Shown: positions 2,870-62,612 of the stretch, piece after piece | Layout of the letters: each line of letters begins with the position of its first letter | How positions within the stretch are numbered: position 1 is the stretch's first letter | NCBI GenBank assembly: GCA_951406725.2 | Contig: OX597837.1 | Span: 9,362,001 to 9,426,000, forward strand | DNA: 64,000 nucleotides | Direction of reading: 5' to 3' | Source: Octopus vulgaris | Taxonomy: Eukaryota | Position numbers and translations under genes: made by a program | The notes under the pieces: generated by a model | Database searches by the model: none | Seen by the model: only the letters and a program-made list of their open reading frames with translations | Told to the model about the DNA's origin: nothing

Positions 2870-2873
<4 letters not shown>

Positions 2874-3100
2874 CTATATTGTCAATAATAAAAGGGTAAA
2901 GTTCTCAAGTAATCGATGTACGTGTGATCTTTCGTTATTTTTCCCTCTATACCTGCGTGAATTATTTTTGAGTATACATTTTCTGGGAGACTTTTCTTAT
3001 AGTAGAGGAAATAGCTAAAATTTTAGGGCTGCTATTTCTAAAAGTTCGGTGTGTGGTAAAGTAAATTATTTTACTGAACCCTAATTATATAACGTAATAT
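2870..3100 (+). mobile_element. Diverged partial copy of the 565-bp hammerhead element (see 53535-54472), between (TA)n tracts
   Basis: 2901-3100 aligns by eye to 54267-54472 (gttctcaa.taatc ... gggctgctatttcta ... aaagtaa.ttattttact ... gtaatat); 2870-2900 resembles the inverted arm end tcaacaattcagggtaaa. Confidence 0.7.
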
Positions 3101-9109: not shown

Positions 9110-9840
9110 AAATATTCCATCTACTAGAGGCACAAGGTCCGAAATATTTGAGGAGGGGCTAGTTGATTAGATCGACCGTCAGTACGCGAATGGTACTTAA
9201 CTTATCGACCCCAAAAAGATGAAAGGCAAAGTCGACCTCGGCGGAATTTGAAATCAGAACGTAAATACAGACGAAATACCGCTAAGCATTTCATCCGGGG
9301 TGCTAACGTTTCTTATTTCTTTATTGCCCACAAGGGCATAGAGGGGACAAACAAGGACAGGCAAAGGGATTAATTCGATAACATCGACGCCAGTGCGTAA
9401 CTGGTACTTAATTTATCGACCCCGAAAGGATGAAAGACAAAGTCGACTTCGGCGGAATTTGAACTCAGAACGTAACGACAGACGAAATATCGCTAAGTAT
9501 TTCACCCGGCGTGCTAACGTCGATAAATGAAGTACCAGTTCGGGATCGATAAATTAAGTACCAGTTGCAAACTGGAGTCGATCTAATCGACTACCCCACT
9601 CCTCTCACCAAAAATTTTGGACCTTGAGCCTAGAGTAGAAAAGAATCGTTAGCACGCCGGACGAAATGCTTAGCAGTATTTCGTCTGTCTTCACGTTCTG
9701 AATTCGAATGCCACCGGGGTCGACTTTACCTTTCATCCTTTAGGGGTCGATAAATTATGCACCAGTGAAACACTGGGGTCGAAATAATAACTTAATCCCA
9801 CCCCTATAATTTCAGGCCTTGTGCCTACAGTAGAAAGGAT
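9110..9840. mobile_element. SINE family B cluster (minus-strand dimer abutting plus-strand copies)
   Basis: Minus cores at ~9205 and ~9415; plus-strand pieces 9520-9840. Confidence 0.8.
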
Positions 9841-32251: not shown

Positions 32252-32478
32252 ATATACATATATATATATATATATATAGCAATAATAATTCTCTAAATGA
32301 GATATAGACAGTGACTGCTCCATAATATAAGGGACATTAGCCAACTGAATATGGCTAGGGACAGGGCAGGGTGGTGAGGGTGTCACTGTTGCATTTAGCC
32401 CCAGGCGAACATCAACGTCACCAGATAGGCCGACGCCATCACGGCGTCCTCTATCTTGCAAAGGGAGATCATTCCCCA

Positions 32479-32553
32479 AGAAGCGGATGCCACACACGGA
32501 CCTAGGTTTCAAGGTGTATTGCCTATTATCAACGTGTGGTAGGCACCGCTTTT
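32479..32553 (-). ncRNA. Type I hammerhead ribozyme (U3-A8 variant), inverted monomer
   Basis: Reverse complement of 32745-32819. Confidence 0.75.
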
Positions 32554-32744
32554 CGACGAACGACTCACCGTGCAAGATATATATAAAGATTTTCAAGTAA
32601 ATACATTTACTAATTTCGAAAATCTGTTCGACTGTCTATATCTCATTTAGAGAATTATTATTGCTGTCGAACAGATTTTCGAAATTAGTAAATGTATTTA
32701 CTTGAAAATCTTTATATATATCTTGCACGGTGAGTCGTTCGTCG

Positions 32745-32819
32745 AGAAGCGGTGCCTACCACACGTTGATAATAGGCAATACACCTTGAAACCTAGGTCC
32801 GTGTGTGGCATCCGCTTCT
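32745..32819 (+). ncRNA. Type I hammerhead ribozyme (U3-A8 variant)
   Basis: Stem I cacacg/cgtgtg extended by agaagcggtgcc/ggcatccgcttct; core UUGAUAA (32766-32772); stem II agg-caataca-cct; GAAA (32788-32791); palindromic stem III ACCUAGGU; GUC cleavage predicted after 32799. Confidence 0.78.
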
Positions 32820-33099
32820 TGGGGAATGATCTCCCTTTGCAAGATAGAGGACGCCGTGATGGCGTCGGCCTATCTGGTGACGTTGATGTTCGCCTGGGGC
32901 TAAATGCAACAGTGACACCCCCACCACCCTGCCCTGTCCCTAGCCATATTCAGTTGGCTAATGTCCCTTATATTATGGAGCAGTCACTGTCTATATCTCA
33001 TTTAGAGAATTATTATTGCTGTCGAACAGATTTTCGAAATCAGTAAATGTATTTACTTGAAAATCTTTATATATATCTTGCACGGTGAGTCGTTCGTCG

Positions 33100-33174
33100 A
33101 GAAGCGGTGCCTACCACACGTTGATAATAGGCAATACACCTTGAAACCTAGGTCCGTGTGTGGCATCCGCTTCT
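33100..33174 (+). ncRNA. Type I hammerhead ribozyme, monomer 2
   Basis: Identical to 32745-32819. Confidence 0.78.
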
Positions 33175-33454
33175 TGGGGAATGATCTCCCTTTGCAAGAT
33201 AGAGGACGCCGTGATGGCGTCGGCCTATCTGGTGACGTTGATGTTCGCCTGGGGCTAAATGCAACAGTGACACCCCCACCACCCTGCCCTGTCCCTAGCC
33301 ATATTCAGTTGGCTAATGTCCCTTATATTATGGAGCAGTCACTGTCTATATCTCATTTAGAGAATTATTATTGCTGTCGAACAGATTTTCGAAATCAGTA
33401 AATGTATTTACTTGAAAATCTTTATATATATCTTGCACGGTGAGTCGTTCGTCG

Positions 33455-33529
33455 AGAAGCGGTGCCTACCACACGTTGATAATAGGCAATACACCTTGAA
33501 ACCTAGGTCCGTGTGTGGCATCCGCTTCT
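33455..33529 (+). ncRNA. Type I hammerhead ribozyme, monomer 3
   Basis: Identical to 32745-32819. Confidence 0.78.
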
Positions 33530-33677
33530 TGGGAATGATCTCCCTTTGCAAGATAGAGGACGCCGCGATGGCGTCGGCCTATCTGGTGACGTTGATGTTC
33601 GCCTGGGGCTAAATGCAACAGTGACACCCCCACCACCCTGCCCTGTCCCTAGCCATATTCAGTTGGCTAATGTCCCT

Positions 33678-33747
<70 letters not shown>

Positions 33748-37658: not shown

Positions 37659-38420
37659 ATAAAAGGGTGCCATACCTCTTCTGCGAGGCCGAAGAATTTC
37701 AAGAGCCAGCGAACCGCAGAGAAAGTCACGATGATTCTTTTGCGGGATGACAAGGATGTAATTCTCTTCATTTGGATGGAATGTCGTTGCACACTGAACT
37801 GCAATTAGTACTCTGTAACTAAAAAATAATTAGTGGATCTATTAAGAAGAAGAAAATTAAGAAGAACCTAAAAATGATCCTCATTCAGCCTGAACTGGTT
37901 CTCCGTTTGCTAACGACGATTTCACTCACGATTGTGTGTTCGATATCCGGCGCCGAGCTGTGTCCTTGAGCAAGACTCTCTATTTCAGTTGCTCCAGTCC
38001 ACTCAGCTGGCAAAAACGAATCATACCTGTAATTCAAAACGGACAGCCTTGTCACATCCTCTGACCCACTGAAGAGCTAAGTCAAGTGTATTTCTCAACC
38101 ACTTGGACGATAATTTCACCAGCAATTTGTTCCGTTGATGAGACAAACTAGAATGCTCATCGTCGTTAGTAAACGGAGAACCAGTTCAGGCTGATGAGGA
38201 TCATTTTTAGGATCTTGTTCATTTTGTTCCTCTTAATAGATCCACTAATTATTTTTTAGTTACAGAGTACTAATTGCAGTTCAGAGTGCAACGAAATTCC
38301 ATCCAAATGAAGAAAATTACGTCCTTGTCATCAAGCAAAAAGAACCATCGTCAATTTCTTTGCGGCTCGCTGGCCCTTGAACCCCTTCGGCCTCGGAGAA
38401 GAGGTATGGCACCATTTTAT
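37659..38420. repeat. ~260-bp inverted duplication (37659-37920 / 38159-38420) around a SINE body
   Basis: tgcaattagtactctgtaactaaaaaataattagtggatctattaaga and its exact reverse complement; flanking arm sequence moderately diverged. Confidence 0.92.
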
Positions 38421-41599: not shown

Positions 41600-41602
<3 letters not shown>

Positions 41603-41873
41603 ATTATTATTTGACGGAATAAAATCCAAACTTACAAGGACAAAAATCCTATTTAGAAATACTAAATAAAATTTCACACAATATATATATAGAAAATTAG
41701 AAAAAAAACACCTTTTAATCAATTCAAAATGAACAATTAAATTACACCATCTAGAAAATTACATATAATAGAAATATTAAAATCAAAATAACAATAAAAC
41801 GTCAATGATTAAGTAAATTGCAAAAAAAAAAAATAATAATAACATATAATTTGTCGAATAACGACACGTGATA

Positions 41874-46308: not shown

Positions 46309-46374
<66 letters not shown>

Positions 46375-46376
<2 letters not shown>

Positions 46377-46625
46377 TCAAAATAAGCAACAAGAATGACT
46401 CCGGTTGTTTGGTACAATCGTTTCGTACTACATCATTTTATTAAATGTTGTAAGTATTACAACAAATTTAAGATGCTGAGCACTCATCAGCCAATTATAG
46501 AGGTTTTCCATTAATACAAAAGTTTTCAAATCAAGTGGCAACATTATAGAGAAGGTAGATATACAGACAAAGATGTAGATTTAAATTTTAAGAACATATG
46601 AGGTAGTGAAGTCCTTCCACTGACT
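46375..46625 (-). mobile_element. ~250-bp (TA)n-flanked element carrying a hammerhead
   Basis: Unique block bounded by TA-rich microsatellite on both sides; contains the motif at 46409-46494. Confidence 0.6.
46409..46494 (-). ncRNA. Type I hammerhead ribozyme, canonical core, long stem II
   Basis: Minus strand: ttgg-CUGAUGA-gtgct...(ttaaat-ttgttgtaa-tac-ttacaacatttaa)...agtac-GAAA-cgattg-UA-ccaa. Confidence 0.8.
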
Positions 46626-46673
46626 ATATATATATGTAAGTATGTATATATACATATGTATATATATACGTAC

Positions 46674-50716: not shown

Positions 50717-51103
50717 GATAAAGTGATAGTATGTTGTCAATTTTATCTGACAGTCCCATGAAAGGGAAGAATGCTACTATTATTTGATGCCTCTCCTTCT
50801 CTGCCTGCACCTCAGGGATGGATTGACCCTATACATTCCGCATGCACACATCTTCCGTGAAAGTGGAATGCTCGATGCGTTCAGTGGAAACGAAAATCCA
50901 ACGTGTGCGCTACACGTCTGTACTCTAGGCACAACAGCAGGTGAAACACATTTCTGGTGTCCTTATGTTTTCAAAGTGGAAACAATAAGGACACAGCAAA
51001 CGTGCCAAGTTCAACAGGAAATGGTGCTTCCTAGGGCTAAATAACAGTAGCATTCTTCCCTTTCATGGGTCACATAAAGTTGACAACATACTCTCACTTT
51101 ATC
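50717..51103. repeat. Inverted repeat or possible MITE, ~65-bp arms (50717-50785 / 51039-51103)
   Basis: cccatgaaagggaagaatgctact / agtagcattcttccctttcatggg; no clear TSD. Confidence 0.8.
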
Positions 51104-53497: not shown

Positions 53498-53534
<37 letters not shown>

Positions 53535-53538
<4 letters not shown>

Positions 53539-54472
53539 CAACAATTCAGGGTAAAATTAAATAATTATTAATCAATTTCACCAAGTATTCAGTATGTAAA
53601 GGGACCATTTAAGGCGAATTCAAAATATTACATTTTATAAAGGGCTTAGTAAAATAAATTACTTTGCCACATACTGAACTCATTAGAAATAGCAGCCAAA
53701 AAAAATTTTTTTAGCCATTTCTAATACTTAAAGAAAATTCTCTCAGATAGTGTTTACTCAAAATAGCCCACGAAGGTATGGGGGTAAAAACATTAAAAAA
53801 ATCACAAGTGCAAAGATTATTTGAGAACGTACGTTTCTGCTATTTCTAATGAGTTCAGTATGTGGCAAAGTAATTTATTTTACTAAGCCCTTTATAAAAT
53901 GTAATATTTTGAATTCGCCTTAAATGGTCCCTTTACATACTGAATACTTGGTGAAATTGATTAATAATTAATTAATTTTACCCTCAATTGTTGAAATTAT
54001 AATTCATTTCTCTCTGTTTAATGCTTCGGTTTTCACCGATAAAACATGGTGTTTGCTAGTTTAGCCCACGTGGGTGGAAAGGGAGGGCAGAAATTCTTCG
54101 CTTGCATATTTTGAATTTGTTGGCACTGTTAGTCTGAACGGATCTTCGGAGGTGAAAAGTTGCCAAAAGGGTATGCTCCTACTTTCAGTGTTTACAAATC
54201 CGAATTAAGAAATTTTGAGCTGACGAAAGAAATGTCGAATTGTATTTGGCTAATCTAGAAACGTACGTTCTCAAATAATCTTTGCACTTGTGATTTTTTT
54301 AATGTTTTTACCCCCATACCTTCGTGGGTTATTTTGAGTAAACACTATCTGAGAGAAATTTTCTTTAAATATTAGAAATGGCCAAAAAAAATTTTTGGGG
54401 GCTGCTATTTCTAATGATTTCAGTATGTGGCAAAGTAATTTATTTTACTAAGCCCTTTATAAAATGTAATAT
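53535..54472. mobile_element. 565-bp hammerhead element: inverted arm 53535-53838 plus a 1.1-monomer forward arm 53837-54472, in (TA)n
   Basis: ctgctatttctaatga repeats at 53837 and 54402 (period 565); the left arm is the reverse complement of sequence spanning the monomer junction. Confidence 0.88.
54214..54275 (+). ncRNA. Type I hammerhead ribozyme
   Basis: tttgag-CUGACGA-(aga..gtcgaa/tttggc..tct)-GAAA-cgtacg-UU-ctcaaa; palindromic stem III ACGUACGU; cleavage predicted after 54269; stem II imperfect. Confidence 0.75.
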
Positions 54473-54604
54473 ATATATATGCGTGTGTATATATATATAT
54501 ATATATACACATATGTGTGGACGAAAGAGAAAGAGAGACAATGTGAGAAAAAGATAGATAGATAGATAGAGCACATCGACCTGTGTTAATTATTCTACTA
54601 GTTT

Positions 54605-62207: not shown

Positions 62208-62213
<6 letters not shown>

Positions 62214-62605
62214 TTATTTATTTATTATTTGAGGGAATAAAATGCAAACTTACAAGGAAAAAGAATTCAATTTAGAAATACTAAATCAAATTCCACACAA
62301 TATAATATATATAAAATATTAGAAAAAAACCCCACCTTTTATCAATTCAAAATGAATAATTAAATTACACCATCTAGAAAATTACATATAATAGAAAAGT
62401 TAAAATGAAATTAACAATTAAAAAGTAAAGATTAAGTCAATTACAAAAATTATATAATGTATATAATAGGTATTTTTTTGTAATTTATTTAATCTTTACT
62501 TTTTAATTGTTATTTTAATTTTAACTTTTCTATTATATGTAATTTTCTAGATGGTGTAATTTAATTATTCATTTTGAATTGATAAAAGGTGTTTTTTCTC
62601 AATAT

Positions 62606-62612
<7 letters not shown>
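62208..62612. mobile_element. Family E element in two inverted arms (62311-62449 / 62475-62610) within (TA)n
   Basis: atcaattcaaaatgaataattaaattacaccatctagaaaattacatataatagaaaagttaaaat and its exact reverse complement. Confidence 0.85.

Follow-up and report, generated by a model that had tools for sequence, protein, structure and literature searches.

Two-armed insertions in the window

The window analysed here, 64,000 nt of the Octopus vulgaris contig OX597837.1 (assembly GCA_951406725.2, positions 9,362,001 to 9,426,000 of the forward strand), carries at 53535-54472 a two-armed insertion of a 565-nt repeat (family A), which was delimited by self-comparison and lies between two TA tracts, a (TA)n run on the left (53498..53534) and an interrupted one on the right (54473..54510). 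The left arm (53535..53838, minus strand) covers monomer positions 420->565->160 and terminates at a long end, so called because it bears a tail of ~90 nt (53535..53624, minus strand; monomer 71-160) that is terminal on this arm only. The right arm (53837..54472, plus strand; 565->1->565->70, or 1.12 monomers) terminates at a short end, at monomer position 70. The two arms meet head-to-head at 53837..53838, where they overlap by 2 bp (CT). The right arm includes one complete monomer of 565 nt (53838..54402, plus strand) and a type I hammerhead motif (54213..54276, plus strand), with its core at 54220 and a predicted cut after 54269 (monomer 432). Among public contigs from four runs, none spans the TA tracts of this insertion, so that no empty allele was seen; one contig joint, with 23-base sides, skips 1291 bases and ends in a high-copy repeat, and was left uncounted.

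A second insertion of the same architecture, built from a 355-nt repeat (family B), occupies 32278-33685. Its left arm (32278..32632, minus strand; monomer 36->355->35) has the long end with a 44-nt tail, its right arm (32631..33685, plus strand) holds about 3 x 355 nt and has the short end (position 346), and the arms overlap by AC at 32631-32632. A type I hammerhead motif lies at 32759..32806 (plus strand, core at 32766), and further cores are found at 33121 and 33476 on the plus strand and at 32532 on the minus strand. Re-reading of both loci reproduced the coordinates, the letters and the four outer ends running into (TA)n that the original prediction had given. What the two loci have in common is the architecture: the A and B units gave no BLAST match to each other and are unrelated in sequence.

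Two further sites had been proposed to look similar. The one at 62208..62612 does share the architecture and represents a third family (family D): its left arm is sense on the minus strand with the long end at 62208, its right arm reaches a short end at ~62612, the tail is ~92 nt, and longer copies of the family bear a hammerhead motif. The other, at 2870-3100, is an old A-like copy (2875..3100) with ~76% likeness to A; its right arm (2901-3100) has a short end, while the short left arm (~2875-2913), with a long end, is weakly supported (shuffle fraction 0.02-0.04).

Retrozyme character of the repeats

Pattern searches found a type I hammerhead motif in each repeat unit of families A and B. 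The family A motif (CUGACGA...GAAA) combines a 6-bp stem I with a palindromic stem III; its triplet is GUU, and its stem II is mismatched at the base. The core words of this motif were matched in 19 young and 27 older copies. The family B motif (UUGAUAA...GAAA, GUC triplet) was missed by a canonical CUGANGA scan and was detected once the 3-8 pair had been freed; its U3-A8 core is a known hammerhead variant of Penelope-like elements (PMC4209133), and by pattern the intact core words occur in 83 copies against ~7 variants. A search against Rfam yielded no gathering-score match in the window, with merely chance hairpin matches at the A and B loci. Both monomers fold far better than their shuffles (z of -5.55 for A and -5.42 for B), tandem arrays reach ~6 units, and the 2.8-Gb genome contains 4781 exact matches to a 27-mer of A and 157 to a 25-mer of B. 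No coding motif, including a reverse transcriptase (RT) plus GIY-YIG frame, was detected inside the A or B units; these elements are cargo and not autonomous, enzyme-coding Penelope-like elements.

The A, B and D insertions can be classified, from their sequences, as non-coding hammerhead repeats (retrozymes), the predicted ribozymes of which may be active. They resemble the metazoan non-LTR retrozymes (PMC7229834, 10.64898/2026.07.22.740005) in their tandem non-coding monomers, type I hammerheads, palindromic stem III, strong folding and thousands of copies, and differ from them in that the A monomer is 565 nt long, as opposed to 230-390 nt in those papers. A link between retrozymes and Penelope-like elements has already been proposed in the same papers; word searches of their accessible text turned up no mention of two-armed inverted structures, of tails or of a model of priming. 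Within the accessible parts of the literature, we found no description of octopus retrozymes or cephalopod Penelope hammerheads corresponding to families A, B and D.

At loci A and B alike, the ribozyme strand reads outward from the junction, so that both outer ends are RNA-sense 3' ends. This is the arrangement expected under the earlier proposal that both target ends prime cDNA synthesis.

Orientation and ends of insertions across the genome

The genome census of family A comprised the 30 best-scoring loci and 65 loci covering the first 100 pattern matches (one contig), and that of family B the 30 best-scoring and 55 pattern loci, and of 27 additional clusters among the first 100 matches, 25 were retrieved; the best-scoring sets are biased toward long arms. 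Adjacent opposite-strand units were joined head-to-head in 93 of 93 junctions (55 in A, 38 in B) and tail-to-tail in none, a count in which a single event is represented by three rows and from which pairs more than 80 bases apart were left out. Arm orientation relative to the ribozyme strand, which would have spoken against the original prediction had it been random, follows the strand in every junction examined.

Once identical duplicates, clusters truncated by the edge of a locus and five copies of passenger or segmental origin had been removed, 135 insertions were left, 92 of them two-armed and 43 one-armed. Tabulation of their 3' ends revealed two fixed points per family, at ~70 and 160-164 in A and at 346 and 35 in B; the difference between the long and the short end, i.e. 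the tail, is ~90 nt in A and 44 nt in B. The two kinds of end are paired in a nearly strict manner: 87 of the 92 two-armed insertions combine one long with one short end (p ~6e-24 against 50:50), two have long ends on both sides, none has two short ends, and three possess a non-standard end. Both the orientation of the arms and this end rule, the latter absent from the original prediction, are far beyond chance. Among the 40 best long-end matches of family D, 17 have a clear second arm, which ends short in 16 cases and long in one. In some seemingly one-armed insertions (L097, L038 and L049) 8-16 bases of the opposite arm are still present, and these show the complementary end.

Coding Penelope-like elements leave the same footprint

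One B insertion adjoins a coding element with an open frame of 811 aa, in which a DKG motif, an RT (RVT_1, E 7e-8), a CxxxxCxxC linker and a GIY-YIG motif can be recognized; by the motifs given in PMC8557442 it is Neptune-like. This element terminates in TA either with or without a 32-nt tail, with which the next tandem unit begins. The two outer ends could be seen in 19 copies (13 from 20 extended regions and 6 from shorter loci), 18 of which combine a long end with a short one. Since an element encoding its own endonuclease leaves the same long and short ends, the two-armed footprint belongs to Penelope-like elements.

Two protein queries and one GIY-YIG search were used to look for a coding partner resembling A, B or D in sequence; in ~110 coding-element loci, drawn from tens of thousands of candidates, none was found, which speaks against the enzyme model set out below, and the only matches were nested or neighbouring insertions. 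In particular, a Hydra-type element (motifs DKT and CxCx5C) was considered as the partner of A and rejected, as the A-like matches near its frames are a passenger insertion. Two Neptune-like families contain minimal hammerhead motifs 3' of the GIY-YIG frame (L290:8809-8846; also L310, L312, L313, L316, L321 and L327), with a U3-A8 core as in B and, in one of them, the same seven core letters. This shared core may be taken as a hint, and only a hint, of partnership. Five short element words are absent from one text supplement of PMC8557442; its other supplements and those of the bioRxiv preprint may contain relatives.

A family A two-armed insertion together with its microsatellite flanks is located in the 3' region of the Hydra-type element in 22 of 30 copies (L211-L240; for example L218:3006-3218), and the same arrangement was noted for L077, L082, L090, L139 and L142; this A insertion spreads as a passenger. 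Several Hydra-type copies lacking it, as judged by eye, have a TA/TG tract at the matching place, which indicates that the tract preceded the insertion there.

Target sites

Of all 3' ends, 193/227 adjoin TA, and 30 of the 43 one-armed insertions have TA on both sides. In one locus (L175:2314-5680) a single TA run contains three independent-looking head-to-head insertions: one of family B, one of a coding Neptune-like element and one of another hammerhead family.

Long (TA)n tracts are fragile, and the original prediction read such insertions as RNA-templated patches; in this reading spontaneous breaks in (TA)n would be filled by reverse transcription from both ends, with TA:RNA pairing setting the starts and no need for an element endonuclease. 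The prevalence of TA at the ends and on both sides of one-armed insertions is in line with this reading, as are the TATA/ATAT words that coincide with or adjoin three of the four fixed ends, and the sliding of some A ends to nearby TA-like words. Pairing with TA nevertheless accounts poorly for family B, the long end of which shares a single base with TA and yet was used 33 times at exactly position 35, whereas the longest TA run of B (83-91) was never used as an end. Moreover, random breaks offer no cause for the strict pairing of long and short ends, and TA targeting has been described for the endonuclease-bearing Neptune, Naiad and Hydra elements (PMC8557442).

A family B insertion outside TA (L033) bears on the same question. 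It is flanked by a 12-bp target duplication without any loss, and here too a long end is paired with a short one. The flanking DNA is itself a repeat, and all 11 empty paralogues retrieved (of 31 matches listed) contain the target once. A duplication without loss points to a staggered cut after which both 3' ends were employed. In a scan for target duplications L033 was the sole credible case, the other candidates being simple repeats, and the fact that only one duplication could be resolved counts against a model in which an enzyme cuts the target. Taken with the element-fixed ends and the identical footprint of endonuclease-encoding elements, L033 makes passive patching the weaker reading, and we regard it as improbable; the targeting looks enzyme-made.

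Template and common source of the arms

Reading of arms through the monomer junction, as originally noted at the two loci, was seen in the census as well: 103 of 180 arms run past the ribozyme site (59/104 in A, 44/76 in B), and 65 of 180 are longer than one monomer (34 in A, 31 in B). For this reason a cleaved linear monomer is insufficient as a template, which must have been multimeric, circular or uncleaved. The proposed circular or multimeric RNA agrees with the read-through, as does uncleaved RNA; the read-through and the strong folding speak indirectly for putative RNA circles, and a circle and a homogeneous multimer would not be distinguishable.

The two arms of an insertion also share their sequence variants. 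Common minor alleles coincide between arms in 2572/2626 cases in A (819 expected if independent) and in 246/251 cases in B (91 expected), counts that represent non-independent events, and the units inside one arm share such alleles at the same rate as do units of opposite arms. Rare alleles are shared in 420/614 cases in A but in only 60/259 in B. Consequently, the two arms derive from one source lineage, though not demonstrably from one molecule; the sharing could alternatively stem from later conversion of one arm by the other or from only one source having been active at any given time.

Shared alleles would likewise be expected if one-armed or tandem insertions had been inverted or duplicated afterwards at the DNA level, by recombination or replication slippage, and inverted repeats may be unstable when TA surrounds them. 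Such rearrangement should nonetheless generate both orientations, whereas no tail-to-tail junction was seen; it provides no route by which one arm could stop at a fixed site lying 44-90 nt past the end of the other; and a single duplication encloses both arms of L033. We therefore consider it very improbable that the inversions post-date insertion.

Inner junctions and the containment of arms

The original prediction had the arms joined by microhomology. Under a strict walk, 16-19% of random blunt joins show an overlap of at least 2 bp, and under an alignment method 32-38% do so; the 2-bp overlap alone is accordingly near chance. With the alignment method, which took in 34/55 A and 31/38 B junctions, overlaps of at least 2 bp were present in 16/34 junctions of A (37.5% expected, p=0.17) and in 14/31 of B (32% expected, p=0.09), while overlaps of at least 3 bp were counted in 9/31 B junctions (p=0.04). 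The strict walk gave 12/36 for B (p=0.007) and 10/44 for A (p=0.32, with negative values counted), many of the A values being divergence artefacts. Untemplated extra bases were observed in 11/34 A and 3/31 B junctions. Obligatory microhomology joining can be discarded, as the enrichment is weak or absent under the matched null; the junctions reflect mixed end-joining in which microhomology is optional.

A different account of the head-to-head geometry is self-priming, as modelled for Penelope-like elements (PMC3846280, PMC8557442): one target-primed cDNA (or an antisense template) would fold back and copy itself, and the endonuclease would resolve the product at a second fixed site, leaving a one-sided tail. 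Such a process accounts for the shared alleles as well as for the geometry, and near-exact fold-back junctions are enriched in A (5/34, 1.0 expected, p=0.003), with 3/31 in B, which is not significant; these A junctions favour self-priming, or run-off at one RNA end, for that subset. Containment of the arms provides a further means of separating the models. Once 19 loci that were complex, duplicate or non-standard had been excluded, 74 simple two-armed insertions were compared; in 45 of them one arm could be a copy of the other, and these count against two separate primings. In the remaining 29, including the insertion at 53535-54472, neither arm lies inside the other, which excludes a copy-back origin unless the centre was later deleted unevenly, an asymmetric loss at a palindrome centre that could mask containment. 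Blunt and added-base junctions are common, yet fold-back priming requires pairing, and the lengths of the two arms are weakly correlated (rho 0.16, p 0.19). As an explanation of the insertions at large, self-priming therefore appears unlikely to us.

A proposed model of two-sided priming

We believe that the data are probably best accounted for by a Penelope-type enzyme that cuts both strands of the target, primes one cDNA from each of two start sites and copies through unit junctions, the cDNA ends being joined by the host. The enzyme would likely be a Penelope-like RT-endonuclease acting on TA or AT-rich DNA, and both 3' ends thus exposed would be extended on RNA of one source. In the likely order of events, the enzyme, probably a dimer, would start one cDNA at the proximal internal site and the other at the distal one, so that the difference between the two sites would give the tail (90 nt in A, 44 nt in B); the cDNAs would then run past monomer junctions on a circle or an uncleaved multimer and stop at a variable point. 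Host end-joining would finally fuse the cDNA ends, either bluntly, through a 1-6 bp overlap or with a few added bases. Where one side was barely extended, a one-armed insertion with TA on both sides would result.

Several of these steps have a counterpart in vitro. For a purified Poseidon protein, cleavage and extension of both DNA strands, a preference for AT-rich targets, a predicted dimeric state and initiation at two internal positions of the RNA, between which the tail lies, have been described (PMC11167929). The likeness between the Poseidon PAc assay and the octopus insertions thus extends to the two internal start sites bounding the tail, to the cutting and extension of both strands and to the AT-rich target. 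The genomic copies differ in pairing the two sites one per side, whereas in the assay the top and bottom strands were not seen to differ in start site and, in the accessible text of that study, no two-armed product was modelled (PMC11167929). In the absence of a strand difference, the assay does not yet explain the long/short pairing.

A bolder extension of the two-sided model is that such priming is the normal Penelope reaction, in which an asymmetric dimer would hold one RNA, a retrozyme circle or multimer, with one subunit per start site and write both strands at once while rolling round the template. We put this forward tentatively, as a conceivable but less probable generalization. If it is true, two-sided priming would account in a single step for the partial tandems, the tail and the inverted head-to-head arrangement, and retrozymes would be minimal circular substrates of the Penelope enzyme.

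Relation to known insertion structures

Endonuclease-positive Penelope-like elements have been described to leave a 5'-truncated copy in inverted orientation and a tail of 30-40 bp that is often confined to one end, and to show a bias toward (TA)n (PMC8557442); in another study of Penelope-like insertions the head-to-head arrangement was the most frequent one, target duplications were of 8-10 bp, and self-priming was proposed (PMC3846280). The octopus insertions resemble those of both reports (PMC3846280, PMC8557442) in their partial tandems, head-to-head inverted copy, one-end tail, occasional duplications, (TA)n bias and mobilisation in trans via terminal sequences. They differ in that the cargo is a non-coding multimer, in that the tails measure 44 and ~90 nt instead of 30-40, in that the tail rule is near-strict, where the published wording is 'often' or 'optional', and in that two primings fit the data better than does the self-priming proposed in the literature. 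The origin of the tandem and inverted Penelope structures and of the one-sided tail has been called open (PMC8557442, PMC11167929). Retrozymes and the Penelope layout were both known; what is added here is the near-strict long/short rule and the containment test.

Inverted arms also arise through twin or dual priming of L1 (PMC2837659), where, as here, both target ends prime cDNA, the inverted arms lie within one duplication and the junction is formed with or without microhomology. In L1 twin priming the poly(A) serves the first primer, the second primer pairs internally at a position that varies, and there is hardly any overlap between the arms (PMC2837659). The octopus insertions, by contrast, have no poly(A) end, both of their starts are fixed and internal, the arms overlap widely, and two-armed copies form the majority (92/135). 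Twin priming of the classical L1 type was rejected for want of a poly(A) end and in view of two fixed ends and overlapping arms. In the literature outside subscription journals, we found no paper on twin or dual priming by Penelope elements.

The thousands of short non-coding copies constitute a countable footprint that separates mechanistic models: one long and one short end per event, with arms of one source, often neither contained in the other. By this insertion signature, and not by ribozyme likeness, the spread of retrozymes is tied to Penelope enzymes.

Other repeats and minor observations

In family B, the 5' ends of many arms lie around monomer 195-213, where a long rod-like stem has its foot, perhaps owing to stalling of reverse transcription. 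Arms of family D often begin just 3' of the ribozyme, and a one-armed family D copy at 41600-41830, with TA at both sides, extends to the ribozyme stem III word. Another one-armed insertion, at 46374-46630, is found amid TA tracts; it contains a minus-strand hammerhead motif (core at 46490) and resembles the further hammerhead family of the TA run in L175. Inverted repeats at 37659-38420, 9366-9799 and 50717-51103 have no flanking TA and are probably unrelated elements. Finally, a 184-bp dispersed repeat forms two-copy arrays at 21739-22085 and 28966-29341.
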